64,000 bases of DNA from a bacterium (GTDB lineage: Bacteria; Bacteroidota; Ignavibacteria; UBA10030): positions 7,931-71,930 of the forward strand of contig JAZDJN010000027.1 in NCBI GenBank assembly GCA_043803945.1, written 5' to 3'. Shown one piece after another: positions 43,178-58,027 of this stretch. The notes under the pieces are model-generated. The model searched no databases, had not been told where the DNA came from, and worked only from the letters and a program-made list of their open reading frames with translations. Both the position numbers and the translations under genes were made by a program. The first letter of the stretch is position 1. The number at the start of each line of letters is the position of its first letter.

Positions 43178-44170
43178 ATGACACACTATAAAGAACTCGG
43201 ATTGGTGAATTCAAAGGAATTATTTCAGAAGGCCGTGAAGGGCGGATACGCGATTCCGGCATTCAATTTTAATAACCTTGAACAATTGCAGGCAATCATC
43301 GGTGCTTGCGTTGAAACAAAATCTCCCGTTATTCTTCAAGTCTCCAGCGGCGCCAGAAAGTATGCGAACCAAACGCTTTTAAAACATCTCGCCAAAGGTG
43401 CCGTGGATTATGCCGGGGAACTCGGCTATGCCATTCCTATTGTGCTCCACCTCGACCATGGCGATACTTTGGAGTTGTGTAAATCCTGTGTTGAATCCGG
43501 ATTCTCCTCGGTGATGATTGATGGTTCTCACCATTCGTATGACAAGAATGTTGAATTAACGCGCCAAGTTGTTGAGTTCGCACACTCGCACGATGTTACT
43601 GTTGAAGGTGAGCTGGGCGTATTGGCAGGTATCGAAGATGAGGTTTCCAGCGCGGTAACGCATTACACGAAACCGGAAGAGGTAGAAGACTTTGTGAAGA
43701 AAACGGGAGTCGACTCGCTGGCCATTTCCATTGGAACCTCGCACGGTGCGAACAAGTTCAAACCGGAACAATGCACACGGTCCGAAGACGGAGTGCTTGT
43801 CCCGCCGCCGCTCCGGTTCGATATTCTGGAAGAAATTGAAAGGAGGATTCCGGGATTTCCCATCGTGCTGCATGGTGCATCCTCCGTGCCGAGCGAGTTA
43901 GTGAAAATCATCAACAGCAATGGCGGCAAGTTGAAGGATGCAGTTGGTATTCCGGAGAGCCAACTCAGGAGGGCTGCCGCATCGGCGGTGTGCAAGATCA
44001 ATATCGATTCAGATGGCCGGCTTGCAATGACAGCAGCGATACGAAAAGTGTTTGGTGAGAGTCCGGGGGAATTCGATCCGCGAAAATATCTGGGTCCGGC
44101 CCGTGATCAACTCAAGGCATTATACAAACACAAAATTGTGAACGTGCTTGGGAGTGCTGATAGGGCATAA
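43178..44170 (+). CDS. fba: Class II fructose-1,6-bisphosphate aldolase
   Basis: 'PVILQVSSGARKY', 'IVLHLDHGDT', 'SVMIDGSHHSYDKNVELTRQVVEFAHSHDVTVEGELG' and 'IVLHGASSVP' are class II FBA signatures. Confidence 0.85.
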   Translation: MTHYKELGLVNSKELFQKAVKGGYAIPAFNFNNLEQLQAIIGACVETKSPVILQVSSGARKYANQTLLKHLAKGAVDYAGELGYAIPIVLHLDHGDTLELCKSCVESGFSSVMIDGSHHSYDKNVELTRQVVEFAHSHDVTVEGELGVLAGIEDEVSSAVTHYTKPEEVEDFVKKTGVDSLAISIGTSHGANKFKPEQCTRSEDGVLVPPPLRFDILEEIERRIPGFPIVLHGASSVPSELVKIINSNGGKLKDAVGIPESQLRRAAASAVCKINIDSDGRLAMTAAIRKVFGESPGEFDPRKYLGPARDQLKALYKHKIVNVLGSADRA

Positions 44171-44197
44171 CACAGTTCAATGCCGATGTACATTTGA

Positions 44198-44226
44198 AGC
44201 CCGTCTATGGACGGGCTTTTTTTTGG
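44198..44226 (+). terminator. Rho-independent terminator of fba
   Basis: The hairpin 'agcccgtctatggacgggct' is followed by T9. Confidence 0.7.
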
Positions 44227-44565
44227 GGGGACTGGACTACACAGTCATCAGTAATTGAATTTATGTGATAAAGTTTTTTACTCATTCGAAGAAGAAAGAG
44301 CAACCGCGAAGAATGCCAATAGTCCAAGAATAGAATGAAAGTGTTTTCCTCATAATAGAAAAAGTCAGGCAATGTGTTACCTGACTTTTAGTACGCCCGA
44401 AGGGAGTCTCCGCCAGGCGGATGAGCCTCCGGCTCAGAGCCCCTAACACCCATTTTGATTAATGACCGAAATCGTACTAATGCTTAATTCGCGGTAATAA
44501 AAATCCCGCCTCCCAGCGGGATCTTTTCTTCTCACTTCTCACGTTTTTCTTCTTACCTTCTTTTG

Positions 44566-44639
44566 TACGCCCGAAGGGAGTCGAACCCCTAACCCTCAGC
44601 TCCGTAGGCTGATGCTCTATCCAGTTGAGCTACGGGCGC
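44566..44639 (-). tRNA. tRNA-Arg (anticodon ACG)
   Basis: The reverse complement folds as a cloverleaf: acceptor GCGCCCG/CGGGCGT, D-arm GCTC..GAGC, anticodon stem TCAGC/GCTGA with loop CTACGGA, and T-arm AGGGG-TTCGACT-CCCTT. There is no encoded CCA. Confidence 0.8.
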
Positions 44640-44755
44640 AAAGGAATATGTAAATGTGGAAATGAGTAAATGAAGGAATTGTAGCATTGAAAAGACGTTT
44701 CTCTTAATTCCTCAATTTCCTAATTCCCAAATTTTCACATTCTCACATTTCTATG

Positions 44756-44828
44756 TAGCCCTAACGGGATTCGAACCCGTATTTTGGCCTTGAGAGGGCC
44801 ACGTCCTAAACCCTTAGACGATAGGGCC
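44756..44828 (-). tRNA. tRNA-Glu (anticodon CTC)
   Basis: Reverse complement 'GGCCCTATCGTCTAAGGGTTTAGGACGTGGCCCTCTCAAGGCCAAAATACGGGTTCGAATCCCGTTAGGGCTA'. The anticodon loop is CTCTCAA and the T-loop is TTCGAAT. Confidence 0.75.
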
Positions 44829-44944
44829 AAGGTAAATAAGTGAATGTGAAAATGTGGAATTGAAAAACAGTTTCTTTCAATTTCTCAATGCCATATTCTA
44901 CATTCTCATATTCCCCCATTCTCATATTTCCATTGCTGCCCCGC

Positions 44945-45017
44945 TAGGGCTCGAACCTAGACTCTTCTGATCCAGAGTCAGACGTGTTGCCAGTTACACC
45001 ACGGGGCAATTAAAAAT
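44945..45017 (-). tRNA. tRNA-Gln (anticodon CTG)
   Basis: Reverse complement 'TGCCCCGTGGTGTAACTGGCAACACGTCTGACTCTGGATCAGAAGAGTCTAGGTTCGAGCCCTAGCGGGGCAG'. The U1-A72 pair is typical of tRNA-Gln, the anticodon loop is CTCTGGA and the T-arm is CTAGG-TTCGAGC-CCTAG. Confidence 0.8.
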
Positions 45018-45305
45018 CAGTACTTTCGTAAGGGAAAAACCTATTCTTGATAAAATACATGTTACAGAATAGTAGCAGATTGTATAGGTTTGTATCTGCC
45101 GGTACTGATTTATGGCGCACAAATGTAGCAAGGAATTTCAAAACTATCAAGAAGATATATTTTGATAGATTCATTCCAAATAAAAAGAAGCTAAGTGTAA
45201 GATTCCAGATATGTATTCTTGTTGGTGTGAGGATGTTATGATAGAATCACAAATAAAGAAGCGCGTATTCTTAAAAATATATCAAATAGAAAATATTCGA
45301 TTGAT

Positions 45306-46382
45306 ATGGATGTTTTTACCATGATGCGCGGCCTCCCGATGGATTTCTCATCTGACGAAAAAAGCTACTCCATCGGAGATCAGTATATGTTCGGTCCCTC
45401 GATCATGGTTTGCCCTGTAACCGAGTACATGTACCATCGCCCGCCGGAGTCAAGCGAACTGGTGCAACGCGATGTTTTCAAAACTAACGACGGTAAGCCC
45501 GGGCTCCTGGCAAGATATTTCAAAGACGCCGACCGACGAATGTTGACACGAGAACAGATCGATCCCAACATCGACATCATATGGTATACAGGTCGCCCGG
45601 ACTATGTCACGGACTCGGCTTATGCGATCCGCTGGGAAGGAAAGCTCATACCGAAGGAGAACGGGAATCATCAATTTCATTTGTTGTGCTATGATAAAAA
45701 ACGTCTATTGCTGAATGGGGATACGCTTCGTATGGTGTACACCAGCGTCGAGCAGTACACTGAACTTGTGAAGTTGGAGAGAGGAAAAGAATATCCTTTT
45801 GTACTTGAAACAGAGAATAGGTCAACCGGAGCTGCACGAATGCGCCTGTTCTGGAAGACACCGTCGATATTCGCGAGAGAGCAAGAGAAGAAGAATAAAG
45901 AAAAAACGAGAACAGTCTATCTTCCCGCTTCTCACCTTTGGTACGATTTCTGGACAGGTGCTCCTTTTAAGGGAGGGCAGACGATCAAGGCTGATGCACC
46001 GATTGAGAAGATTCCTCTCTTCATAAAAGCCGGGTCAATCATCCCGATGGGACCTTTTCTCCAGTACACCACGGAGAAACCTGCCGATCCTCTCGAATTG
46101 CGTATCTATCCCGGAGAACATGGTCGGTTCACCCTCTATGAGGATGAAAACGACAACTACAACTACGAGAAGGGAGTGTATGCGACGATCGAATTCTCCT
46201 GGGACAATGAGCGACGGCAACTCGTCATCGGTGACCGCCAAGGAGAGTTCCCGGGCATGGTGCGTGAGCGCATCATCAAGGTAGTCCTCGTCTCAAAAGA
46301 CCGCGGGACTGGTATCGAGATCTCAGATCGATTCGATGCAGTCGTTACCTATCGTGGTACAGAAATCGTTTTGAAGTTCTGA
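45306..46382 (+). pseudogene. 5'-truncated glycoside hydrolase family 31 gene (C-terminal ~360 aa only, with PA14-like insert)
   Basis: 'DQYMFGPSIMVCPVTEY', 'RTVYLPASHLWYDFWTG...GGQTIKADAPIEKIPLFIKAGSIIP' and 'LELRIYPGEHGRFTLYEDE' are GH31 C-terminal motifs. The PA14-like insert is 'LARYFKD...IRWEGKLIPKENGNHQFHLLCYD'. The N-terminal domain, the catalytic (beta/alpha)8 core and a signal peptide are absent. The ORF starts ~290 bp from the tRNA cluster. Confidence 0.6.
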
Positions 46383-46975
46383 ATAGTTGAAGATCTTTAT
46401 AAAGGAGGAGTTCATTACGAGCAGTTGTTTTTGTGGGACGAGCAAGAATTCAATACAAGCCTACCGCGACACGCTTTAAGTCGGGATCCTATGTACCCGC
46501 TGAAGCCCCGAAGGGTTGAAGGTGGGCCCCATCACAATAGAGGCCGTTTCTGAAAAGACTCGACCTCTTTCTTTTCATGACCCCGACTTGTACCTGCATT
46601 TTGAAGATGGAGCAAACAATAAGACTTCTTTACAGAGCTAAAGAAAGCACGATGTATCACGCTTGATTGGTTTGATGCGGATAGGACAATAATCTGATAT
46701 GGAGTGGCCAACGGAGGAATCAATAAACAACAGATGATCTAATGAACACCAGAGTATCTGCAGACATCGGAAGGTGTGGGGAATGTAGAGACAGTAGAAA
46801 TCTGATGGGTCGTGCTTTGATGATTAAAGAGGTGAGAATGAGCGGAGAGGTCTTGACATTTGAATAATTGGTAGTAATCTTCCTTATAACAGTCTGGAAT
46901 TCTTTGAGCTGCAACGTTGAGCGGTTATACTGTGATGGACAATCGAGCTATAATTCTCTAAAGCGAGGATTGTGT

Positions 46976-48334
46976 ATGTTTCGTAAAATTTTCCTGGTTG
47001 GCATTCTAGCTTTGATAATGTTCTCGTCGTGTTCTCTCATCCAGTTTCTTTATGAGCAGGATGATTTCATTCGCGTGGAGAGGACTCAGTTTACCCACAA
47101 CGGTAAGCCGTACTATTTTGCTGGGATCAACCTCTGGTATGGCTGCTATCTGGGATCTCCCGGAGAAACAGGTGATCGTGAGCGGCTTTGCCGTGAACTC
47201 GATTCATTGCTCGCCTATGGCATTAACAATCTGCGTCTCCTGGCTGCTTCTGAAGATTCATACATACTGCGTTCGATCAAGCCGGCGATTCAACGAGCTC
47301 CCGGTGTTCTCAATGATTCCCTGCTGGTCGGATTAGATTTTGTCCTGGATGAAATGTCAGAGCGGCATATGCATGCTGTGATGTTCTTGAACAATTACTG
47401 GGAATGGTCGGGTGGAATGGCGCAGTATGTCGCTTGGGCCACCGGTGCAGATGGCCCCGATCCGGAAGATCCGGTAAAAGGCTACGGTGGATTTATGGAT
47501 TTTTCAGCGAAGTTTTATTCTACTCCCGAAGCGATGCGGCTGTATGAAGAGTATGTGAAACGGATCGTCACTCGGAGAAATACAATCAATGGCCGCTTGT
47601 ATGCCGAGGATCCAACGATCATGTCGTGGCAGCTCGCGAATGAACCACGCCCCGGCCGGGATGGAGAATCGGGAAAACGAAACCTTGCCGCGTTCAATGC
47701 CTGGATCGAACGGGCTTCGCAGTACATTCATTCCCTGGATACCAATCACCTCGTCTCGACTGGAAGCGAAGGGAAGGTTGGCTGTATTCAACTTGAAGAA
47801 GCGTTTCTCGAATCACACAAATCGGTGTATGTTGATTACCTGACATTTCATCTCTGGCCATTGAATTGGGGATGGTTCAATCCCAAACGCATTACGGAGA
47901 CTCTTCCCTCGTCGGAAGAAAAATCGTTGCAGTACATCAACCTCCATTTTACGCTAGCGAGACAGCTCAACAAGCCAATTGTCATGGAAGAGTTCGGCAT
48001 GGGGCGGGATAGTGCAAATATCCTTCCCGGAACACCGACGACAGCACGCGATCATTTTTATCGAGTTGTCTTCCAGGCACTCTATGATTCTGCACGGGCC
48101 GGTGCACCGATTGCCGGCTCGAATGTCTGGACGTGGGGAGGCGAAGGTGTTGCCCGGCATCCAGACGGTCAATGGCGCAAAGGCGATCCGTTCGTCGGCG
48201 ATCCTCCGCAGGAACCACAGGGAAGAAATTCAATTTTTATTTCGGATACCTCTACCCTAAGTATTCTGCATCGGCACGCACGACTGATGCAGCGGCTTGG
48301 CATTATGGATTCCCTGCTCACCTATAAGAAGTGA
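46976..48334 (+). CDS. GH5-family (clan GH-A) endo-beta-1,4-mannanase-like lipoprotein
   Basis: Lipoprotein signal (MFSSCS). 'WQLANEPR' carries the catalytic acid motif NEP and 'VMEEFGMG' is the nucleophile region. A Trp-rich TIM-barrel pattern is present. Confidence 0.65.
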   Translation: MFRKIFLVGILALIMFSSCSLIQFLYEQDDFIRVERTQFTHNGKPYYFAGINLWYGCYLGSPGETGDRERLCRELDSLLAYGINNLRLLAASEDSYILRSIKPAIQRAPGVLNDSLLVGLDFVLDEMSERHMHAVMFLNNYWEWSGGMAQYVAWATGADGPDPEDPVKGYGGFMDFSAKFYSTPEAMRLYEEYVKRIVTRRNTINGRLYAEDPTIMSWQLANEPRPGRDGESGKRNLAAFNAWIERASQYIHSLDTNHLVSTGSEGKVGCIQLEEAFLESHKSVYVDYLTFHLWPLNWGWFNPKRITETLPSSEEKSLQYINLHFTLARQLNKPIVMEEFGMGRDSANILPGTPTTARDHFYRVVFQALYDSARAGAPIAGSNVWTWGGEGVARHPDGQWRKGDPFVGDPPQEPQGRNSIFISDTSTLSILHRHARLMQRLGIMDSLLTYKK

Positions 48335-48499
48335 CAATGAATTTGAAGATGCAATGGAGATTCCTGCTGATGCGGAACAGTACTGATGAGTCGCTCTCAG
48401 CAGTTACTTGCTTAAAATCTGGTCAACGCCTGCTATGGCGCATGCGGACCAATCGTACGGTACTAATCCACACTTCAACGAATCGTGCCTTAGAATTCT

Positions 48500-51111
48500 A
48501 TGAACCATATCAAAGTCTTGACGTTACTTGCCGTATCGATGATGATCGTGCAGCTTTCAGCTTCCAACGGTGACCGTTCGATGAACATGAACCTGCACAC
48601 TCAATGGAGATTTAAACAGGAAGGAACCGATCGATGGTACTCTGCGGCTGTACCGGGGTGTGTCCATACCGACCTGATGCAAAACGGACTAATTCCAGAT
48701 CCATTTGTTGGAACGAACGAACGCGATCTCCAATGGATTGGTGAAAAGAATTGGATCTATGAGACAACATTCGGCATTCCAGCCGCATTCCTCCGACAGG
48801 ACCATGTCGAACTTATCTTCGAGGGATTGGATACGTATGCAGATGTTACCCTGAACGACAACACCATTCTCCATGCAACAAATATGTTTCGCACATGGCG
48901 AATTGAATGCAAAAGCCTTTTACGAGAGGGGCAGAATCGTTTGGCAATCCGATTCAAAAATGTGTTCGACGAAAATCTCCCTAAACATCGTTCTGCACCC
49001 TTCGAGCTGCAAGCCTTCGATAACAATGATCAGGCAGAGGCAAAGATTTCCATGCATTCCCGCAAAGCCCAGTTCCATTACGGATGGGATTGGGGGCCCC
49101 GGCTAATCACGTGCGGCGTTTGGCGTCCTGTGGCCCTTCAAGCGTGGAGTGGATTCAAGCTTAACCATGTGCATGTCCAGCAACAGAATGTCACAGAAGC
49201 TGGTGCTGATATCCTCTCTGTCATCGCCATCGACTCAGATCGGCCGCGGGAGGTTTCCATACTCATGACGATGGATGACCTCCAGCTTGTTACACAGCGT
49301 GTGAAGCTTCAACAGGGGAAAAATGTTATTCCTCTTACAGGGCATCTGGCCAATCCAAAACTCTGGTGGACGAATGGCTTAGGTGCTCAATACCTCTACT
49401 CGTATCGGCTTATCGTGAAGGATGATTCCGAATTGAGTGATGAGTATACCACATCCATCGGCATCCGTTCTCTGGAAATTGTTCGGGAGAAGGACACACA
49501 CGGTAGAAGCATGTATGTGAAACTGAATGGTGTACCGGTCTTTATGAAAGGGGCTAATTATATCCCGCAGGACAATTTTCAGAATCGGGTGACTCGGGAC
49601 CGTTGCGAACACATTGTTCGTTCTGCCGCAGAAGCGAATATGAACATGCTCCGGGTATGGGGCGGCGGTATTTACGAAGACGATCAATTCTATGAGTTCT
49701 GCGACCGGTACGGTCTCCTTGTGTGGCAGGAAATGATTTTTGCCTGTGCGATGTATCCTGCTGACGGTGACTTTCTGGAAAATGTGCGGCAAGAGGTGAT
49801 TGATAATGTAACCCGAATCCGCAACCATCCCTGTATCGCATTGTATTGCGGCAACAATGAGAATGAAGCTGCCTGGTTTCAGTGGGGATGGAAGCAGAAA
49901 TACGATACACGAACGCAAGAAATTTTTGAACGGAACGCAGAAAGGCTCTTCTATGAAGTAATCCCTTCGGCGCTCCGGGAAGCAGACTCGACACGCTATT
50001 ATCATCCCACTAGTCCGATTGCCGGAATCAAAAATACTCCATACAGCGAAGGTGATATCCACTATTGGGGTGTGTGGCATGGCAAAGAACCGTTCGAGAA
50101 TTTCACTTCCAACATTGCCCGCTTTGTGAGTGAATATGGATTTCAGTCCTACCCTGAACTCTCCACCGTTTCAAAATTCGCCCGGCCGGAAGATCGACAG
50201 CTTCATTCCGATGTGATGCTGTCTCATCAGCGTTGCATGGCGGATGCACGGCGTGACAAAGAGTATGGCAATCGCTTGATACAGACATACATGGATCGAT
50301 GGTACCGTACGCCGAAAGATTTTGAATCATATCTCTATGTCAGTCAGGTTCTTCAGGCTGAAGGAGTACAGGTAGCATTGGAGGCTCATCGCCGGGCAAT
50401 GCCATTTTGCATGGGAAGCTTATACTGGCAGATCGACGATTGCTGGCCGGTGGCATCATGGTCGAGTATCGATTATTACGGCCGCTGGCATCATGGTCGA
50501 GTATCGATTATTACGGCCGCTGGAAAGCACTCCACTATGCAGCAAAAAACTCTTATGCTCCTATTCTGGTTTCTCCAGCGATGTCGAAAGACAGTGTCAT
50601 CCTTATTCTAGTTTCAGATGCATTGAAAGCGTTTGAAGCGTTGCTCGATGTAACGGTGATGGATTTCAACGGCACTCGAATTTCACACCTTACGCTTCCC
50701 GTGACTGTACCGGCGAATAGCTCGGCGAAGATTCCTACCATCCCGAAACAGCAGCTTATCGGAGATGCAAACGAATCCCGATCTGTTATTCACCTGCAAT
50801 TACGACGGGGGCAGGAAACTCTCCACGAACGATACGCCTACTTCCGGCTGCCAAAGGAACTGGAACTACACAAGCCAACCCTGATGAGAGCCATTCAAAA
50901 AAATCTAACGGGATATACCATTGAGTTGGCCGCATCGACACTTGCGAAATCTGTCATGCTTGCCTGCGGTGACGATGCATGTTTCTTCAGCGATAATTAT
51001 TTTGACCTGGTGCCGGGAATTCAAAAGACTATAACGGTAACGACAACAATGAAACAGGATGAATTCGAAAAATCATTGAAGATTATCAGCTTGATCGATA
51101 GTTATCAGTAA
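48500..51111 (+). pseudogene. GH2 beta-mannosidase disrupted by a 35-bp tandem duplication (frameshift splits it into ORFs 48500..50611 and 50407..51111)
   Basis: The N-terminal 'WYSAAVPGCVHTDLMQNGLIPDPF' and 'LIFEGLDTYADVTLN' are typical of beta-mannosidases. The unit 'tggcatcatggtcgagtatcgattattacggccgc' occurs twice in tandem (50451-50485 and 50486-50520). Removing one copy restores the continuous frame '...CWPVASWSSIDYYGRWKALHYAAKN...' and a protein of ~860 aa. Confidence 0.75.
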
Positions 51112-51173
51112 CCTGAATTCTCCGTACTGCTAATTCGATTACAGTCCTCCGTATCCTGAACATTAAACGATCC

Positions 51174-52271
51174 ATGATGATTGTCATTATTCGATTGCTT
51201 GTCTATCTCGCCACACTCTTAGGATCGGCCACTATGCCCTCACCGCTGAAATTCATACCAGCCAACCATCCCTTCATTCAATATAGTGGAAGATGGGATG
51301 TATCCGACACGCTTCACCGCAAGCATTCCTGGCCCGGAGCGTATCTCCGCGCTTCATTCAGCGGTACGAGTATCGGGATCAGGATGAAAGATAATCTGAA
51401 CTATTACAATGTGTATATCGATGGAACGCTGTATAAAATTTTTCGTGGAACCTCGCCGGACGAAGCTGAGTACACCCTTGCGGAAGGTCTGGATTCTTCA
51501 GCGCATGCACTGCTTCTTAGTAAGCGAAATTTCATGTTCGATGCCGTTTTTTCGGTTTCAGGATTACTGATCGAGGAGGGGGCATCGCTTCTTCCTCCGC
51601 CACCGAGGCCGGAGCGAAGAATAGAATTCGTCGGGGATTCCTTCACGGCTGCTGAAGGGAACGAAGCAACCATGCAGGATGTCGCGTGGGAAGATCGTTT
51701 TCCACTCACCAATATTGATCGGGGATTTGCTCCCATCGTTGCCCGTCATTTTGATGCCGAGTATCACACAACCTGCCGCTCCGGCAGCGGGATGGTATGC
51801 AATTGGGAGGGAAATCCAGAGATCACCATTCCGAAGATCTTCAACCGTACATTGATGGAAGCCCCGGAACCGAAATGGGATTTCAGACAATGGAAACCCG
51901 ACCTCATCGTCATTTGCCTCGGCCTGAATGATCACTCGGGATTACGTGATTCCAATGGGAATATCTCTGAGGAAAAATCTTCTTTCTTTCGCAGAGGTTA
52001 TACAGAATTTATCAGTAGACTCCGAACGCTCTATCCCGGTGTGCGACTTCTTGCCGTTGCGGCTCATCCTGAATGGGTCAGAACGAACGTTCATCAGGTT
52101 GTTCAGGAGGAACTCCTCCATGGAATGAAGGATGTTGCATACACAACGTTCGATGAGGTTCCAGGCGGGTATGTCGCGAACAATCACCCAACAGTTGCCA
52201 CGCACGAAAAAATTGCTGAACAGATCATTGCTGCCATCGAACGGGAGAAAATATTTCCGGTGATGAAATAG
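51174..52271 (+). CDS. CE2-like acetyl esterase (N-terminal beta-sandwich + SGNH/GDSL hydrolase)
   Basis: Signal peptide. The GDS motif is 'IEFVGDSFTAAEGN', the SGNH block III is 'VICLGLNDHS' and a C-terminal 'NNHPTVATHEKIA' is His-containing. Size and architecture fit the CE2 family. Confidence 0.6.
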   Translation: MMIVIIRLLVYLATLLGSATMPSPLKFIPANHPFIQYSGRWDVSDTLHRKHSWPGAYLRASFSGTSIGIRMKDNLNYYNVYIDGTLYKIFRGTSPDEAEYTLAEGLDSSAHALLLSKRNFMFDAVFSVSGLLIEEGASLLPPPPRPERRIEFVGDSFTAAEGNEATMQDVAWEDRFPLTNIDRGFAPIVARHFDAEYHTTCRSGSGMVCNWEGNPEITIPKIFNRTLMEAPEPKWDFRQWKPDLIVICLGLNDHSGLRDSNGNISEEKSSFFRRGYTEFISRLRTLYPGVRLLAVAAHPEWVRTNVHQVVQEELLHGMKDVAYTTFDEVPGGYVANNHPTVATHEKIAEQIIAAIEREKIFPVMK

Positions 52272-52283
52272 CAGTCATATTCA

Positions 52284-53513
52284 ATGTATCCAATGAAAGA
52301 ATTACGAACGATGAGAAGGTGCACTCTACAACGGTTCTTGTTTTACCTAGCTTTGGTGATCTGGAATTCATTCTCCTATGGACAATCACCTCTCCCTCCC
52401 GATGCAAAACTGGAAAAACTTGCCACCGGATTCCTGCAGCCCGAGGGACCAGTATGGAAAGAGGGAGTCGGCCTCCTCTTTAGCGACATCAAACGCAACC
52501 TCATTAATCTCTGGTCGCCGGTGGATGGTTCGATAAAAACATATCTGCAGCCGTCGGATAGTTCCAACGGACTCACATTCGATCGCCATGGCCGTTTAGT
52601 GCTCACACAGATGCGATTGCGCCGGGTATCACGGCAGGAATTGGATGGCACGATCACACCGCTTGCCTCGACATATAATGGTAAGAAACTGAACAGCCCG
52701 AATGATCTCGTGGTGAAATCCGATGGCTCCATTTTCTTTACCGACCCCGATTTTAATATCCCTGTCGGGCAGATAAAAGAATTGAACTTCAAAGGGATTT
52801 ATCGGATTAGTCCCGCCGGCGCGTTGATTCTCCTGGATAGCACATTCGATAAACCGAATGGCATTTGTTTCTCTCCAGATGAACGGAAATTATACGTTTG
52901 CGAGTCGCCGCGCTGCGGCATTTATGTATGGGATGTGATCGGTGATTCCGCGCTTGCGAACAAGAAACTTTTCTTCGCAATCCCCGCAACCGGCTATGCA
53001 GATGGGATGAAAGTTGATGCAGCAGGCAATCTTTACTGCACAGGGCCTACGGGAGTCTGGATTATCTCTCCATCGGGACAATATTTGGGTAAGATTGCTA
53101 CACCTGGAAATCCATCGAACTGTGCCTGGGGTGATGCCGATAGGAGAACCTTATATATTACTGCGGACAGTTCACTGTATAGGATTCGGATGGTCACCAC
53201 AACAAAACAGGAAGAAGAAGAGCATCCAACACCCGACCACTCCGAGCTGTTTCAGAACTATCCGAATCCATTCAATGTCTCGACTATTCTTACGTATCGG
53301 ATTTCGGAAGCCTCGCATATCAATCTCAGGATCTTTGATTCGCTGGGGAATCTTGTCACAACTCTCGTCGACGAGAGGAGAGAGGCGGGTTTCCATGCTC
53401 GAACATTCGATTGCTCGGTGTTGGCGAGCGGTGTTTATCTTGCCCAGCTCATGGCCCGAACGGATCGGACAATCTCCACCTCGCAATCGAAAAAGTTACT
53501 GCTGATACGGTAG
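52284..53513 (+). CDS. SMP-30/gluconolactonase/LRE-like beta-propeller protein with T9SS C-terminal sorting domain
   Basis: 'FLQPEGPVWKEGVGLLFSDIKRNLINLW' and 'NSPNDLVVKSDGSIFFTDP' are propeller-family motifs. The C-terminus 'FQNYPNPFNVSTILTY...SGVYLAQL...KKLLLIR' is a T9SS CTD. Confidence 0.65.
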   Translation: MYPMKELRTMRRCTLQRFLFYLALVIWNSFSYGQSPLPPDAKLEKLATGFLQPEGPVWKEGVGLLFSDIKRNLINLWSPVDGSIKTYLQPSDSSNGLTFDRHGRLVLTQMRLRRVSRQELDGTITPLASTYNGKKLNSPNDLVVKSDGSIFFTDPDFNIPVGQIKELNFKGIYRISPAGALILLDSTFDKPNGICFSPDERKLYVCESPRCGIYVWDVIGDSALANKKLFFAIPATGYADGMKVDAAGNLYCTGPTGVWIISPSGQYLGKIATPGNPSNCAWGDADRRTLYITADSSLYRIRMVTTTKQEEEEHPTPDHSELFQNYPNPFNVSTILTYRISEASHINLRIFDSLGNLVTTLVDERREAGFHARTFDCSVLASGVYLAQLMARTDRTISTSQSKKLLLIR

Positions 53514-53672
53514 TTAATCGATGATCGTTTATATTGCTGCGCGTGAAGGTGAAGTATTGCCTCGCTTTGTATCGTCCGATAGATCCTCAAGAAAAAGAAG
53601 AGAATTTTAAAGAATAGGTGTATATTTGTTTGTCGTACTTGATATGTATGTTCATTCACAGGAGGGGACTCC

Positions 53673-55862
53673 ATGAACCTGGGTAAACATTTTTTCAACT
53701 TGCTTCTTGCACTTATCATTTCACAGGTATCATTTTCACAATCGAACCGGATCACCTATAACAATCAACGACTGTTTCTCAGCGGTGCTAATCTCGCATG
53801 GCTCAGTTTTGCGGGAGATATTGGACCGACACAGGCCAATTATGCAAAGTTCGGAGAAATACTTCTTATGATGCATGACAGCGGCGGGAATTCGATGCGT
53901 TGGTGGCTTCATACCAATGGCACTATCAGTCCGCAATTCAATGATTCGGGGTATGTTATTGGACCGGGAGATGGTACTCTTGATGATTTGAAGAAAGTGT
54001 TGGATCTCGCCTGGGAGCGAGAAATTGGATTGAAACTGTGTCTCTGGTCGTTTGACATGCTTCGCTCTTCCAATAATAGTACAGTTCTCAATCGAAACAG
54101 GCTGATGTTGAATGATACCAACTACACCCGCGCCTATATTAAGAATTGTCTCATTCCATTGGTCAATGCGCTGAAAGGGCATCCCGCGATCGTTGCATGG
54201 GAAATATTTAATGAACCAGAGGGCATGAGCAATGAATTTGGATGGAGCGAAATCCAGCACGTCCCCATGGCCTCTATTCAACGATTCGTTAATCTCTGTG
54301 CTGGAGCGATTCACCGTGCAGATCCGGCAGCTAAAGTGACGAATGGCTGCTGGGCGTTTCTTGCACTCACCGATGTGGCGACAACTTCCATCTCCTTGGG
54401 AAAGATTGGCATAGACCTCTCACAACTGGGTATTGCCGAGAGAGAGGATATGGAAAAACGGTTTACGGATAAATATGGGATAACGCTCACCGCGGAAGAA
54501 ATAGTGCAGCACTATCAACGCGCTGCTCTGCAAGCAAACTATAATTATTACTCCGACAGCCGTCTCATTGCTGCAGGTGGAGATGTTCAGGGAACACTCG
54601 ATTTCTACTCCGTGCATTATTATGATTGGGCAGGGACGTCTCTTTCTCCTTTCAGCCGGCCTGCACTGTTTTGGAATCTGGATAAGCCGATCGTCGTTGC
54701 TGAATTCCATATGAAAGATACATTCGGTGTTCCCAAACAGTATCTCTTTGAAGTCTTGTTCCAGAATGAATATGCAGGTGCCCTGCCATGGTCGTGGACG
54801 GATAACGCCGTCACGAAAGTTGAAGATATGCTGGCTGGAATGAAGTATATGTGGGATAATCATAAGAACGATGTGGATGTTCTCGGCATCGGGGGAGATT
54901 GGCCAATTGTAACGCTTACAGCTCCTGCTCCTGAAACAAAATTTGCCGACACTGCAAAAGTCGTCATTACAGCCGAGGCGTCGGATAAGGATGGTTCTGT
55001 AGCCCGGGTGGAGTTTTTTATCTCGGATACTGTGAGAATTGGAGAGGCCATAACACCGCCGTATACGATGACCTGGTCGAATTTGAAATCAGGATTATAC
55101 GTGATTACAGCAGCAGCGACCGATGACAAGGGTCACAAGCGGATCTCCAAGGGAGTTCAGATCCAGGTGGGTGCGCTTCAGATGACAAGACTGGAAGCCG
55201 AAGGTGCAATCCGATCTGGCACACCGACTGTTCGAAGCGATCCGACAGCAAGCCGTGGTTCCTATGTCACCATGCAGCAGACCGGCACTATTACATGGAC
55301 AATCCCCAGTGTGCCTAAAGATGGAGCTTATGAAATCGTGTTTCGATACAGATTATCTTATAATACACCAAAGAATCAGTATATCAATATCAATGGAGTA
55401 CGTATAACAGAACTGGCATTCACGGGAACAACGAATACATGGCTCGATAAATCATTAACGGTTAATCTTACTGCCGGGCAGAATATTGTACAAATGGAAT
55501 TATCCTGGGGATGGATGGATGTCGATTACCTCTCCGTCCCGGTCACATTCCTCACATCGGTGAAGAGCAACAATGAGCTTCCACTCTATTTTTCTCTTGA
55601 GCAGAATTACCCGAATCCGTTTAATGCAATGACAAATGTCGAATTCCGATTGCTGGTGAGGGCCAAGGTGAAACTGAGTGTGTACGATATCCTCTGCCGT
55701 GAAGTGGCAATACTGGCGCATAGCGACCTGGCGGCAGGAACCCATGCAGTACGGTGGGACGCTTCGAATTTCGCCAGCGGAGTTTACTTCTACAGACTCG
55801 AAGTACAAGATGGTTCACCGGCTGGTGTGATTCAGACAAGGAAAATGGTCCTGGCCAAATAG
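53673..55862 (+). CDS. Secreted clan GH-A (GH5-like) mannanase/glycanase with C-terminal beta-sandwich (CBM/Ig-like) domains and T9SS C-terminal sorting domain
   Basis: Signal peptide. The catalytic region carries 'LFLSGANLAW', 'SMRWWLHTNG', 'AWEIFNEPEG' and 'VVAEFHMKD'. The C-terminus 'EQNYPNPFNAMTNVEF...SGVYFYRL...RKMVLAK' is a T9SS CTD. Confidence 0.6.
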   Translation: MNLGKHFFNLLLALIISQVSFSQSNRITYNNQRLFLSGANLAWLSFAGDIGPTQANYAKFGEILLMMHDSGGNSMRWWLHTNGTISPQFNDSGYVIGPGDGTLDDLKKVLDLAWEREIGLKLCLWSFDMLRSSNNSTVLNRNRLMLNDTNYTRAYIKNCLIPLVNALKGHPAIVAWEIFNEPEGMSNEFGWSEIQHVPMASIQRFVNLCAGAIHRADPAAKVTNGCWAFLALTDVATTSISLGKIGIDLSQLGIAEREDMEKRFTDKYGITLTAEEIVQHYQRAALQANYNYYSDSRLIAAGGDVQGTLDFYSVHYYDWAGTSLSPFSRPALFWNLDKPIVVAEFHMKDTFGVPKQYLFEVLFQNEYAGALPWSWTDNAVTKVEDMLAGMKYMWDNHKNDVDVLGIGGDWPIVTLTAPAPETKFADTAKVVITAEASDKDGSVARVEFFISDTVRIGEAITPPYTMTWSNLKSGLYVITAAATDDKGHKRISKGVQIQVGALQMTRLEAEGAIRSGTPTVRSDPTASRGSYVTMQQTGTITWTIPSVPKDGAYEIVFRYRLSYNTPKNQYININGVRITELAFTGTTNTWLDKSLTVNLTAGQNIVQMELSWGWMDVDYLSVPVTFLTSVKSNNELPLYFSLEQNYPNPFNAMTNVEFRLLVRAKVKLSVYDILCREVAILAHSDLAAGTHAVRWDASNFASGVYFYRLEVQDGSPAGVIQTRKMVLAK

Positions 55863-55930
55863 GCGGGTGAGTTACAGGGTGTGCATACAAATAATTAAGT
55901 GTTGTCACTGTTTACTAACGAGATAGTATT

Positions 55931-58027
55931 TTGATTATAACAAAGGAATCAGCCGTGCAACCTTGCCGATTTTTTCTCTCTGCGGTATCATTGACAATAC
56001 TAACAGTGTCGAGTCTATGGTGCCAGCTTTCCAGCGACATTCGCTTGAATCAGATCGGGTTTTATCCCGCGATGCCAAAGATCGCAATTGTCCGCAATGT
56101 AAGTGCAGCGCCGTTCGCGATTGTATCAACGACAACGTTAGATACCGTCTTCCGCGGCACACTGAGTTCAGCGCAGACATGGCCCTATTCAAATGAGTCT
56201 GTAAGCCGTGCAGAGTTCACCGAATTGCAGACACCCGGCACTTATCGAATTGTGGTACCCGGCTTAGGAACATCGTACCTCTTCACGATTAAACCCCGCA
56301 TTCACCTGAATGTCGCGACCGCCGCGTTGAAGAGCTACTATTATCAGCGTGCATCGATGACGCTCGATGCTGCGTATGCGGGTTCCTGGGCGCGTGCTGC
56401 TGGGCATCCGGATAATAGTGTCCTGATTCATCAGTCGGCGGCAAGCGTGCAGCGTCCGGCAAACAGTACAATCTCCGCTCCTCGCGGATGGTATGATGCC
56501 GGTGATTATAACAAGTATATCGTCAATTCCGGAATATCGACATACACGATTCTTGCGGCGTACGAACACTATCCGGAATTCTGTGATCGACTGGACACAA
56601 ACATTCCTGAGAGCGGCAATGGCGTTCCGGATATACTCGATGAGGCGCTCTGGAACGTACGGTGGATGTTGGCCATGCAGGATCCGAATGATGGAGGAGT
56701 GTACGCCAAACTGACGAATGCGAACTTTGATGGTTTTATCATGCCCGCTGCTGCTACCACGCCGCGCTATGTCGTGAAAAAATCTACCGCTGCTGCATTA
56801 GATTTCGCTGCGGTAACGGCGCAGGCAGCACGGATCACAAAAAAATTTTCTGCTGCACTGCCGGGATTATCAGACTCTTGCTTGCAGGCATCGCTGAAGG
56901 CGTGGCAATGGGCAAGGAACAATCCAGCAGTGTATTATGATCAGGCGCAAATTAATGCTCAATATACTCCCGTAATCAATACGGGAGCATACGGTGATAA
57001 TAATGTCTCCGATGAATTTGCATGGGCGGCTGCAGAGTTATGTGTTACAACGGATCAGGATAGTTTTTTAACGGTGGCGAGCCCTCTCTCGGTCTCCTGG
57101 TTCAACGTCCCCGGATGGCCTGATGTTCGCACACTCGGACTGTACACACTCGCTCAGCATCGTAACACTCTGCCATCATCCATCGATACGAGTATTCTCG
57201 CAGTTCGATTGGTAACGCTGGCAAACATGCTTCGTAATGCTATGACAACTTCTGCCTACCGTGTCGTGATGGGCGCGCAAAGCTCTGATTTTGGATGGGG
57301 AAGTAATTCTGTGGCAGCAAATCAGGGAATGGTGCTCCTGATGGCGTTCAGGATGACAGGCGATACAAGCTATCTGCGCGCCGCCCTGAGCAATCTCGAT
57401 TACCTTCTCGGGAGAAATGGAACGACATTCTGTTTTGTTACCGGTCTTGGATCTCGCTCTCCATTGAATATTCATCATCGCCCCTCAGCTTCAGATGGTG
57501 TCCAGGCACCCGTGCCGGGATTATTAGCCGGAGGGCCGAATCCCAGAATGGAGGATAGTGTGAAGACCTATCCGTCATCGCTGCCCGCTCTGGCGTACAC
57601 CGATAATGTGAATTCCTATGCTTCGAATGAGATTTGTATCAACTGGAATGCACCCCTGGTATACCTCGCCATCGGAATAGAGGCGCACACGTCACCGAAT
57701 GGTTTACCGACCTCGTTGAATCCTGATCCCTCGCATCAGCCGATTCCCGGGTCATACGGACTGTTCCAGAATTATCCCAATCCATTCAATCCCTCAACGA
57801 CGATCAGGTATCAGATACCGGCGACAGGACATGTGACGTTGAAAGTGTTCGACACGCTTGGTTGTGAAGTGACAACCTTGATTGATGAAGTGAAAAGCGA
57901 AGGTTCCTATTCAGTGGTATTTGATGGTGCACATCTTTCGAGCGGTGTCTACTTTGGACGGTTGATGGCACAATCCCGGGATGGTAATCCTGTCGTTGAG
58001 ACAAGAAAGCTTGTCTTGACAAAGTGA
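55931..58027 (+). CDS. GH9-family glycoside hydrolase with N-terminal CelD-like Ig domain and T9SS C-terminal sorting domain
   Basis: 'IRLNQIGFYPAMPKIAIV' is the Ig-like N-domain. 'GWYDAGDYNKYIVNSG' matches the GH9 DAGD motif. 'DEFAWAAAEL' is present. The CTD is 'FQNYPNPFNPSTTIRY...SGVYFGRL...RKLVLTK'. Confidence 0.7.
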   Translation: MIITKESAVQPCRFFLSAVSLTILTVSSLWCQLSSDIRLNQIGFYPAMPKIAIVRNVSAAPFAIVSTTTLDTVFRGTLSSAQTWPYSNESVSRAEFTELQTPGTYRIVVPGLGTSYLFTIKPRIHLNVATAALKSYYYQRASMTLDAAYAGSWARAAGHPDNSVLIHQSAASVQRPANSTISAPRGWYDAGDYNKYIVNSGISTYTILAAYEHYPEFCDRLDTNIPESGNGVPDILDEALWNVRWMLAMQDPNDGGVYAKLTNANFDGFIMPAAATTPRYVVKKSTAAALDFAAVTAQAARITKKFSAALPGLSDSCLQASLKAWQWARNNPAVYYDQAQINAQYTPVINTGAYGDNNVSDEFAWAAAELCVTTDQDSFLTVASPLSVSWFNVPGWPDVRTLGLYTLAQHRNTLPSSIDTSILAVRLVTLANMLRNAMTTSAYRVVMGAQSSDFGWGSNSVAANQGMVLLMAFRMTGDTSYLRAALSNLDYLLGRNGTTFCFVTGLGSRSPLNIHHRPSASDGVQAPVPGLLAGGPNPRMEDSVKTYPSSLPALAYTDNVNSYASNEICINWNAPLVYLAIGIEAHTSPNGLPTSLNPDPSHQPIPGSYGLFQNYPNPFNPSTTIRYQIPATGHVTLKVFDTLGCEVTTLIDEVKSEGSYSVVFDGAHLSSGVYFGRLMAQSRDGNPVVETRKLVLTK

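Follow-up and report, generated by a model that had tools for sequence, protein, structure and literature searches.

A partial tRNA-Arg copy and a 5'-truncated GH31 gene at the two ends of a Gln-Glu-Arg tRNA operon

Results

A three-gene tRNA operon is followed by the 3' remnant of a possible former fourth gene

We analysed a 64-kb stretch of DNA, here called the window, from the genome of an uncultured Ignavibacteria-like bacterium, in which ARAGORN and Rfam identify a Gln-Glu-Arg tRNA operon of three genes, all on the minus strand (Table 1). An Rfam search of 44100-45350 at E up to 10 returned these three tRNAs and otherwise no credible match. The TTCTCA motif that stands in the tRNA-Arg trailer also fills the trailers of tRNA-Glu and tRNA-Gln, and its presence at least twice in the 37-nt tRNA-Arg trailer is improbable by chance (P = 3.6e-4); this trailer therefore looks native to the operon rather than element-derived or imported. 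Two hairpins follow. The distal one, at 44360-44389, is probably the original operon end. The proximal one, at 44503-44522, is probably the present minus-strand terminator of the operon; this is our own reading of the sequence, the scan having called it on the plus strand. Between the two hairpins lies a fragment resembling the 3' end of tRNA-Arg, and if it is counted with the three genes the spacings from 3' end to 3' end along the operon are 180, 190, and 174 nt.

Table 1. Features of the tRNA operon and its two flanks (window coordinates).
Feature	Position	Strand	Basis
Strong intrinsic-terminator-like hairpin, 13 pairs and T-run, directly 3' of fragment	44360-44389	-	Terminator scan; fold
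Fragment trailer, similar to first ~13 nt of tRNA-Arg trailer (TTACCT.CTTTT); also an arm of the terminator stem	44376-44390	-	Alignment
Second 18-mer copy, half T-loop to discriminator plus 1 nt, without cloverleaf	44391-44408	-	Exact match
G+C-rich 28-nt insert with two mini-hairpins, splitting the fragment's T-loop	44409-44436	-	Unique in window
Fragment continuation, variable loop and T-stem 5' strand, 13/16 identical to 44583-44598	44437-44452	-	Repeat search; local alignment
G+C-rich hairpin between A/T runs, 43 nt 3' of intact tRNA-Arg	44503-44522		Scan called + strand
tRNA-Arg trailer, two tandem TTCTCA copies	44528-44564	-	TRF; motif statistics
tRNA-Arg(ACG), operon gene 3, intact	44565-44639	-	ARAGORN; Rfam tRNA, 63.3 bits
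Glu-Arg spacer, long imperfect hairpin made of 8-nt repeats	44640-44754	-	z = -3.6
tRNA-Glu(CTC), operon gene 2	44755-44828	-	ARAGORN; Rfam, 63.2 bits
Gln-Glu spacer, architecture as Glu-Arg spacer	44829-44934	-	Folding z = -3.3
tRNA-Gln(CTG), operon gene 1	44935-45008	-	ARAGORN; Rfam tRNA, 62.9 bits
Operon leader with hairpin	45009-45150	-	z = -4.3
Sigma-70-like promoter match	45150-45122	-	Consensus match only; 3 found vs 3.1 expected
5'-truncated GH31 gene, proximal C-terminal beta-sandwich with PA14 insert and distal beta-sandwich	45306-46382	+	Pfam; BoGH31A alignment; NCBI MFH0989523.1

The fragment is a partial, interrupted copy of the tRNA-Arg 3' end

The 18-mer GTACGCCCGAAGGGAGTC, which at 44565-44582 comprises 4 nt of the T-loop, the T-stem 3' strand, the acceptor 3' strand, the discriminator, and one further nucleotide, has exactly two matches in the window when up to 2 mismatches are allowed (44391-44408 and 44565-44582), and none in dinucleotide-preserving shuffles (0/100). 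The first-pass annotation had noticed this repeat and placed its second copy 2 nt too high, at 44393-44410; its further description, of a partial copy ~170 bp downstream of the tRNA on the minus strand, agrees with the 174 nt that we find, in the same orientation. The 156 bp between the copies hold no ORF or gene and duplicate nothing, giving the topology of an insert flanked by 18-bp direct repeats. A plain 174-bp tandem duplication is ruled out, the intervening DNA being unduplicated.

Perfect identity between the copies stops in the middle of the T-loop, as it would in a displaced tDNA fragment. The sequence beyond the repeat had been described as divergent, which holds for exact identity only: weaker similarity continues on both sides. 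On the trailer side, 11/13 positions agree, a score equalled by 2.6-3.4% of shuffles; on the T-stem side, a match of 11-16 nt begins exactly at the tRNA base adjoining the 18-mer and is equalled by 5.5% of shuffles. Each similarity is thus marginally significant (p about 0.03 for the trailer and about 0.05 for the T-stem side). The 28-nt insert has no second copy within the window and so is not a REP-like element there, an identity that we rule out within the window on this ground.

The fragment is not a functional tRNA gene: up to 44493 there is no alignable 5' half, the T-loop is split by 28 nt, and neither ARAGORN nor Rfam at E up to 10 calls a tRNA in 44391-44493. The 41 nt at 44453-44493, where the 5' part of a fourth tRNA would be expected, have no similarity to tRNA-Arg. 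The fragment folds no better than shuffles (z = -0.24), against z = -3.3 to -4.3 for the spacers and leader.

The locus has part of an island signature

We compared the locus with the signature used by Islander. An intact regenerated tRNA gene, tRNA-Arg(ACG), is present, as is a cognate 3' tDNA fragment downstream in the same orientation; the interval between tDNA and fragment contains no tyrosine integrase, being 156 bp without an ORF, and this is not the kilobase-scale foreign DNA of an island. Islander island sizes peak at 13.6 and 39.9 kb, and attP sites in the T-stem region are found in 1836/3919 of its islands (PMC4383910). The earlier suggestion of an integration and excision footprint thus survives in part: the duplicate is real, non-random, and of the 3' type, and with 156 bp and no gene it delimits no island.

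The window offers no mobile-DNA genes either. Pfam found no integrase or transposase domain in 41 scanned ORFs of at least 180 aa (two others of that length, 16026-16628 and 24507-25379, both inside annotated genes, were left out of the scan), in line with the first-pass remark that no integrase remains. By blastn, 44225-44564, covering most of the inter-repeat DNA and the fragment, had no match in phage or plasmid collections, and both the 21-mer fragment junction and the 43-nt 3' half of tRNA-Arg were absent from the metagenomes scanned. A scan of IMG/VR with the 18-mer gave one match, a tRNA-Arg in a high-GC phage tRNA array that is unrelated, and we set it aside as irrelevant. We also rejected the whole 45.3-57.7 kb CAZyme stretch as a tRNA-attached island: it is situated 5' of the operon, and to the right the window shows no further tRNA-Arg gene or fragment.

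The GH31 gene has lost its 5' part

On the other side of the operon, the 358-aa ORF at 45306-46382 encodes only the C-terminal ~355 residues, out of ~950, of an enzyme resembling GH31 alpha-xylosidases. Its only Pfam matches are PF21365 (GH31 C-terminal, split in two; 1.4e-25), PA14, and DUF5110 (2.8e-24); neither the PF01055 catalytic barrel nor the PF13802 N-terminal domain was matched. It aligns to residues 756-795 and 797-954 of the 955 of BoGH31A. Homology to full-length enzymes begins at codon 2 (45309; start range from DNA and protein about 45309-45321), and the sequence upstream of that point is unrelated and A+T-rich. Full-length relatives are ~950 aa long and start with signal peptides, and the N-terminus of the ORF is not hydrophobic. 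As the first-pass annotation had stated, then, this is a gene with C-terminal domains only, lacking barrel and signal peptide; its removed part is likewise missing as claimed, since tblastn against all frames of the window recovers nothing of the N-terminal ~600 aa. The truncation of the GH31 gene is real, ~1.8 kb having gone from its 5' end. Judged by its domain content, a product with neither signal peptide nor N-terminal domain nor barrel cannot act as an enzyme.

A conserved short GH31 ORF would have offered another explanation of the missing part. No stand-alone family of GH31 C-terminal/PA14 fragments exists: we checked five short ORFs of this C-terminal type, on contigs of 22 kb to 4.5 Mb, and each is directly preceded by the N-terminal part, encoded in an adjacent or overlapping ORF, so that all five are split full-length genes. 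Among 125 columns conserved to at least 90%, the piece deviates at 2, ranking 50 of 120; with no sequence decay, the cut is either recent or an assembly artefact. The ORF was deposited by PGAP as an ordinary CDS, 'DUF5110 domain-containing protein' MFH0989523.1.

BoGH31A (PDB 5jou) and CjXyl31A (PDB 2xvg) share both C-terminal beta-sandwiches with the window ORF (E = 2e-51 and 8e-46). Relative to BoGH31A, the ORF is without all that precedes residue 756: signal peptide, N-terminal sandwich, and barrel (residues 384-758; PMC4967831) with nucleophile Asp553. The PA14 domain also differs in place, standing in the window's clade inside the proximal C-terminal domain, between BoGH31A residues 795 and 797, and in BoGH31 in the N-terminal domain, at residues 214-362 (PMC4967831).

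Neighbouring genes and related loci

A GH2 beta-mannosidase gene 4 kb from the GH31 piece is broken by a 35-bp tandem duplication that lies between 9-nt imperfect direct repeats, so small disruptive mutations are also found elsewhere in the locus. In the 45.3-57.7 kb stretch the GC content is 0.48 vs 0.45, and the mean tetranucleotide correlation is 0.82 across the two sides of the operon vs 0.88 among chunks to its left; the last chunk, 57.7-63.9 kb, returns to the left-hand composition. Proteins with T9SS sorting domains occur on both sides of the operon.

No collection searched contained a relative close enough to define the breakpoints, which could consequently not be dated. Exact-protein searches with the GH31 fragment and its NCBI version gave no match. 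A contig scan with the flanking FBA gene yielded 80 loci at up to 92% identity; none of the 23 closest that were scanned has a tRNA beside FBA and none of the 21 closest that were compared has synteny with the window, so these loci were unable to define breakpoints. The Gln-Glu-Arg operon occurs in 0/87 loci examined, the only tRNA-Arg(ACG) among them sitting in an unrelated phage locus (L083). On the contigs with the closest homologues of the downstream mannanase (75% and 70% identity), the upstream genes are a GDSL esterase and GH3, not GH31, and shared gene order goes no further than mannanase and CE2. No related genome with an intact fourth tRNA gene was found.

Discussion

We tentatively prefer, with a little less than even confidence, the view that the two features were left behind, inert, by small-scale rearrangements on either side of a native operon and do not mark the limits of a mobile island. 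There is no sign that such an island was ever present; both features are real, and as rearrangement leftovers they are ordinary. We infer that 44376-44452 is what remains, as a dead 3' third, of a fourth gene that the operon once had, most likely a second tRNA-Arg(ACG) copy. What is left of this gene would be the variable loop, the T-stem on both strands, the 3' strand of the acceptor stem, and the start of the trailer; the other two-thirds, on the 5' side, would have been replaced, and the 28-nt insert would now split its T-loop. It would still stand at the regular operon spacing, directly before the old operon terminator. Transcription now probably stops at the hairpin at 44503-44522, so the fragment would do nothing. 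The GH31 ORF would be the 3' 1.07 kb of a ~2.9-kb alpha-xylosidase-type gene that lost its 5' part through a separate event, a deletion or rearrangement, with a breakpoint at about 45306 that abuts the operon's upstream region; the cut would be recent, as the remaining codons are undecayed. An assembly chimera would likewise yield an undecayed truncated gene, which counts against this reading of the GH31 gene. The first-pass annotation had treated tRNA fragment and GH31 truncation as one scar, a connection that we drop: nothing links the two, which are separated by about 900 bp and have the operon between them, and we infer independent events, as we do their order.

The exact same-orientation 18-mer, the two-sided similarity, the regular spacing, the native trailer, and the terminator directly after the fragment all support a former fourth gene. 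Against it, 44453-44493 is unlike tRNA-Arg, so that one has to postulate a discrete replacement; the similarities of the flanks are marginal; the topology is that of an insert between repeats; no related genome was found with an intact fourth gene; and identity stops mid T-loop, where T-loop-targeting integrases cross over. Williams is said to have described, in 2002, classes of integrase by their sublocation in tRNA genes. A close rival, which we consider rather unlikely, is that a tyrosine-integrase element entered the T-loop of tRNA-Arg, bringing a replacement 3' end and its own terminator and leaving the displaced original 3' end (44391-44408) beside the original operon terminator, and that a later deletion took the integrase and nearly all cargo, sparing 156 bp. 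Such a scar would account for perfect identity from the T-loop centre to just beyond the tRNA end, for a terminator behind each 18-mer copy, and for inter-copy DNA unrelated to the tRNA body; the downstream, same-orientation 3'-type fragment passes the Islander orientation filters (PMC4383910), and the T-stem 5' strand-like sequence beside it may be an attP core's left half. The tRNA-proximal trailer, however, which should be element DNA, bears the operon's own TTCTCA repeats, and the model offers no explanation for the 28-nt insert, whose position coincides exactly with the supposed crossover. No integrase was found among the scanned window ORFs, only 156 bp separate the repeats, 44225-44564 is without phage or plasmid match, the fragment junction is not in the metagenomes scanned, and the sole IMG/VR match to the 18-mer belongs to an unrelated high-GC phage tRNA array. 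The history would also require an integration, a deletion sparing both att copies, and an insertion. A variant that we regard as barely credible takes the 174 bp formed by the 156 bp and one 18-bp repeat for an integrative element in miniature that is non-autonomous, the counterpart of a MITE among integrase islands; it would contain only a replacement tRNA-Arg 3' end and terminator between attL and attR, and would depend for movement on a tyrosine integrase with T-loop specificity, supplied in trans from elsewhere.

The contig, of 100,382 bp, being from a metagenome-assembled genome, a misjoin or graph artefact at about 45306 might instead explain the GH31 piece, and possibly the short duplicate and the 35-bp duplication as well; the real genome would then hold an intact GH31 gene elsewhere. 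The undecayed fragment is what this predicts, the 45.3-57.7 kb composition is slightly different, tRNA genes are classic misassembly points, and no second genome confirms the arrangement. We think an artefact improbable, given that the breakpoint lies about 300 bp from the nearest tRNA in unique A+T-rich non-repeat sequence, that an 18-nt repeat is shorter than usual assembly k-mers, and that the 35-bp duplication between 9-nt imperfect direct repeats bears the signature of replication slippage; the left-like composition of 57.7-63.9 kb and T9SS proteins on both sides are consistent with one organism. More improbable still, to our minds, is that the leftovers function, the GH31 tail as a stand-alone PA14/beta-sandwich carbohydrate-binding protein, the fragment as a functional RNA or safety terminator, or both. 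The 358-codon ORF is intact, shows family-typical conservation, is annotated by PGAP as an ordinary CDS, and starts within 3 residues of the boundary between barrel and proximal domain in BoGH31A (756 vs 759; PMC4967831). Yet its five short homologues are split full-length genes with no stand-alone family among them, it is without a signal peptide though full-length enzymes are exported, and in the monolithic GH31 structure the C-terminal domains are packed onto the barrel (PMC4967831); the tRNA fragment, for its part, has no excess structure and no Rfam family match.

The importance of the locus beyond annotation is slight. MFH0989523.1 is predicted to be a catalytically dead GH31 remnant and should not be counted as an alpha-xylosidase in the CAZyme inventory of this metagenome-assembled genome; the adjacent GH2 beta-mannosidase is likewise disrupted. 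For island-finding by tDNA fragments the locus is a caution, as a cognate, correctly oriented 3' fragment is possible without any island. Given same-genus genomes, it would become a small clean test case of an att relic vs a decayed tandem tRNA copy.

Tandem arrays of tRNA-Arg(ACG) genes are known, as in argQ-argZ-argY-argV of E. coli, and tRNA pseudogene fragments occur in tRNA operons. The fragment described here is like a member of such an array in its spacing (174 vs 180 and 190 nt), its orientation, its last position before the terminator, and its isoacceptor 3' end; it is unlike one in that only the 3' third remains, with the 5' part no longer recognisable, nor the spacer's leader half. 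From the displaced tDNA fragments (attR) of Islander islands it differs in having no integrase, 156 bp in place of kilobases, a native-looking trailer, imperfect similarity on both flanks, and a 28-nt insert at the presumed crossover (PMC4383910). With them it shares an intact tRNA gene and a cognate 3' fragment downstream in the same orientation, with perfect identity running from the T-loop to past the 3' end (PMC4383910).

A damaged tRNA-Arg fragment at the end of the tRNA operon

The window contains the 18-mer GTACGCCCGAAGGGAGTC at exactly two places (0 expected by chance): at one it closes tRNA-Arg and spans the final 4 T-loop nt, the 3' strands of T-stem and acceptor stem, and the discriminator plus one extra base; the other, in the same orientation, is 174 nt downstream of where tRNA-Arg ends. 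The first-pass annotation had noticed this duplicate, but placed the second copy 2 nt too high and described a shorter and less damaged fragment than is present. On the tRNA side, a unique, G+C-rich 28-nt insert is followed by GAGCCCCTAACACCCA, identical at 13 of 16 positions to the bases directly after the 18-mer in the real gene, which form the T-stem 5' strand and variable loop; the best local alignment begins at the first tRNA base beyond the 18-mer, and 5.5% of shuffles equal its score. On the trailer side, in the DNA after the 3' end, similarity runs over ~13 nt (TTACCT.CTTTT; 2.6-3.4% of shuffles equal the score). No tRNA 5' half is alignable beside the fragment, neither ARAGORN nor Rfam (E up to 10) calls a tRNA at the second copy, and the fragment is no better folded than its shuffled versions (z = -0.24), in contrast to the operon's spacers and leader (z = -3.3 to -4.3).

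Successive tRNA 3' ends in the operon lie 180 and 190 nt apart; the fragment comes next, at 174 nt. Each of the three trailers is rich in pyrimidines on the plus strand and carries TTCTCA-type repeats of 7-8 nt. Two copies fall within the 37 nt that trail the intact tRNA-Arg (P = 3.6e-4 for at least two by chance, given 47 copies per 64 kb), which makes the DNA directly 3' of this gene look like native operon spacer rather than imported sequence. The intact tRNA-Arg has a G1-U72 wobble topping its acceptor stem, and its CCA is not encoded. Long hairpins fill both inter-tRNA spacers and the leader; these are composed of 8-nt tandem repeats, GTGAGAAT-type after each tRNA and the complement before the next, an architecture that may serve as a signal for processing or be a spacer design particular to the lineage.

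Features of the tRNA operon and the adjoining CAZyme cluster (window positions)
Feature	Position	Strand	Remarks
tRNA-Gln(CTG)	44935-45008	minus	ARAGORN and Rfam agree
tRNA-Glu(CTC)	44755-44828	minus	ARAGORN and Rfam agree
tRNA-Arg(ACG)	44565-44639	minus	ARAGORN and Rfam agree
Leader	45009-45115	minus	imperfect hairpin, z = -4.3
Spacer, Gln to Glu	44829-44934	minus	imperfect hairpin, z = -3.3
Spacer, Glu to Arg	44640-44754	minus	imperfect hairpin, z = -3.6
18-mer, copy 1	44565-44582	minus	
Hairpin and T-run site	44503-44522		43 nt past tRNA-Arg
GAGCCCCTAACACCCA	44437-44452	minus	after the insert
28-nt insert	44409-44436		tRNA side of 18-mer copy 2
18-mer, copy 2	44391-44408	minus	
Terminator	44389-44360		13-bp stem and T-run, directly past fragment
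CAZyme cluster	45320-57720		
GH31 ORF	45306-46382		
PA14 domain	45429-45899		ORF residues 42-198
CAACAGAGGATCTAATAAA repeat	46709-46759		19-nt unit, 2.7 copies
GH2 ORF 1	48500-50611		703 aa
GH2 ORF 2	50407-51111		234 aa
GH2 tandem duplication	50445-50523		35-bp unit, 2.3 copies, 97% matches

Dead gene copy or integration scar

The fragment and the truncated GH31 gene are ordinary pseudogene-type scars. For the fragment, we tentatively prefer the reading that the operon once had a fourth gene, most likely a second copy of tRNA-Arg, whose dead 3' end is still there; this gene would have stood at regular spacing ahead of the old operon terminator, and a replacement event would have truncated it. 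A close but less probable rival is the integration scar proposed in the first-pass annotation. Perfect identity stops at the T-loop centre, a common crossover region, and the DNA between the 18-mers is not duplicated from the tRNA, as integration would have it; yet the tRNA-Arg trailer looks native, imperfect similarity extends beyond the 18-mer, and the 28-nt insert sits exactly at the presumed crossover. To define an island, Islander asks for an intact tDNA, a cognate fragment rightly placed and oriented, an integrase gene in the interval, and a length that is plausible (PMC4383910). The intact tDNA and the correctly placed, oriented fragment are here, and to this extent the proposal stands, but the copies enclose only 156 bp and no integrase. 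Integrase and transposase domains were absent from all 41 ORFs scanned with Pfam, of 43 in the window of at least 180 aa; the remaining two lie inside annotated genes. The interval 44225-44564, comprising the fragment and most inter-repeat DNA, has no match in phage or plasmid collections, and the sole IMG/VR match to the 18-mer is a tRNA-Arg inside an unrelated high-GC phage tRNA array. The metagenome contigs searched contain neither the fragment junction nor an exact copy of the 43-nt 3' half of tRNA-Arg(ACG).

A truncated GH31 gene in a mannan-utilisation cluster

Nothing was found to connect the fragment with the GH31 truncation: the fragment lies at the operon 3' end and the GH31 breakpoint ~300 bp past its 5' end, with the leader and a promoter-like site between operon and breakpoint. 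The GH31 ORF (MFH0989523.1, from the MAG, adjoining mannanase MFH0989524.1) holds, as first described, C-terminal domains only: its matches are PF21365 (in two parts), PA14 and DUF5110. It aligns to residues 756-795 and 797-954 (of 955) of the alpha-xylosidase BoGH31A, whose catalytic barrel spans 384-758 with nucleophile Asp553 (PMC4967831). Because the alignment starts at 756, the signal peptide, N-terminal domain and barrel are all missing; full-length relatives begin with signal peptides, and the absence of one here had been rightly called. Homology to relatives begins at 45309-45321 in protein and DNA alignments; the A+T-rich DNA before it is unrelated and has a stop in frame at 45240-45242. 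When the N-terminal parts of two relatives were searched by tblastn, the window gave no match in any frame.

Many of the listed homologues are short proteins, which could suggest the conserved stand-alone gene that the first-pass annotation named as the counter-case to truncation. In all five inspected (L001, L002, L088, L090 and L091; contigs 22 kb to 4.5 Mb) the N-terminal part is encoded immediately before it, by an ORF that adjoins or overlaps; these are therefore not stand-alone genes but frameshift-split genes of ~950 aa, mostly from long-read assemblies. Across these loci and L089, whose GH31 gene is in four pieces, many "short" collection proteins are halves, mostly from the ERZ250395xx long-read assemblies; homologue lengths in such protein lists can imitate a stand-alone family. 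The least likely option is that the tail has been kept as a protein with a function of its own.

The GH31 fragment shows no decay (off-consensus at 2 of the 125 columns at least 90% conserved; rank 50 of 120), so either the truncation happened recently or the assembly created the junction. An artefact is improbable. Mean tetranucleotide correlation is 0.82 between operon sides versus 0.88 among left-side chunks, and GC is slightly higher in 45.3-57.7 kb, 0.48 versus 0.45, but the last 6 kb of the window resemble the left side in composition again and T9SS sorting domains occur on either side of the operon; the composition differences are weak evidence of a chimera at most. A real truncation is made more credible by the GH2 beta-mannosidase 4 kb downstream, whose two ORFs align to BtMan2A residues 5-643 and 628-823. 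The split is caused by a tandem duplication that encodes the peptide ASWSSIDYYGRW twice and is bounded by 9-nt imperfect direct repeats (GGCCGGTGG / GGCCGCTGG); the mutation is of the slippage type, and suggests that the mannan-utilisation cluster carries real disruptive mutations.

After the GH31 fragment, this GH2 gene is a second broken CAZyme gene. The cluster is made up of the GH31 fragment, a GH5-type mannanase, GH2, CE2, an SGL-domain protein, a CBM35 protein and GH9; several of them have T9SS sorting domains. In the ~590-bp gap from the GH31 stop to the NCBI-annotated mannanase start lies the CAACAGAGGATCTAATAAA tandem repeat, which could be regulatory.

Best identities outside the MAG are 78% for the GH31 fragment, 75% for the mannanase and 92% for the flanking FBA gene, whose matches are Melioribacteraceae/Ignavibacteriales MAGs. 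None of the 21 closest FBA loci compared is syntenic with the window, none of the 23 closest scanned has a tRNA beside FBA, and upstream of the mannanase the nearest contigs carry a GDSL esterase and GH3, without GH31. No genome among the relatives searched is near enough for dating or orienting the two events.

The PA14 domain of this GH31 clade is inserted into the proximal C-terminal beta-sandwich. In a PDB sequence search its significant matches were RsgI-type PA14 domains, and no GH31 structure. Here the domain falls between BoGH31A residues 795 and 797, whereas in BoGH31 and CjXyl31A it is located in the N-terminal domain.
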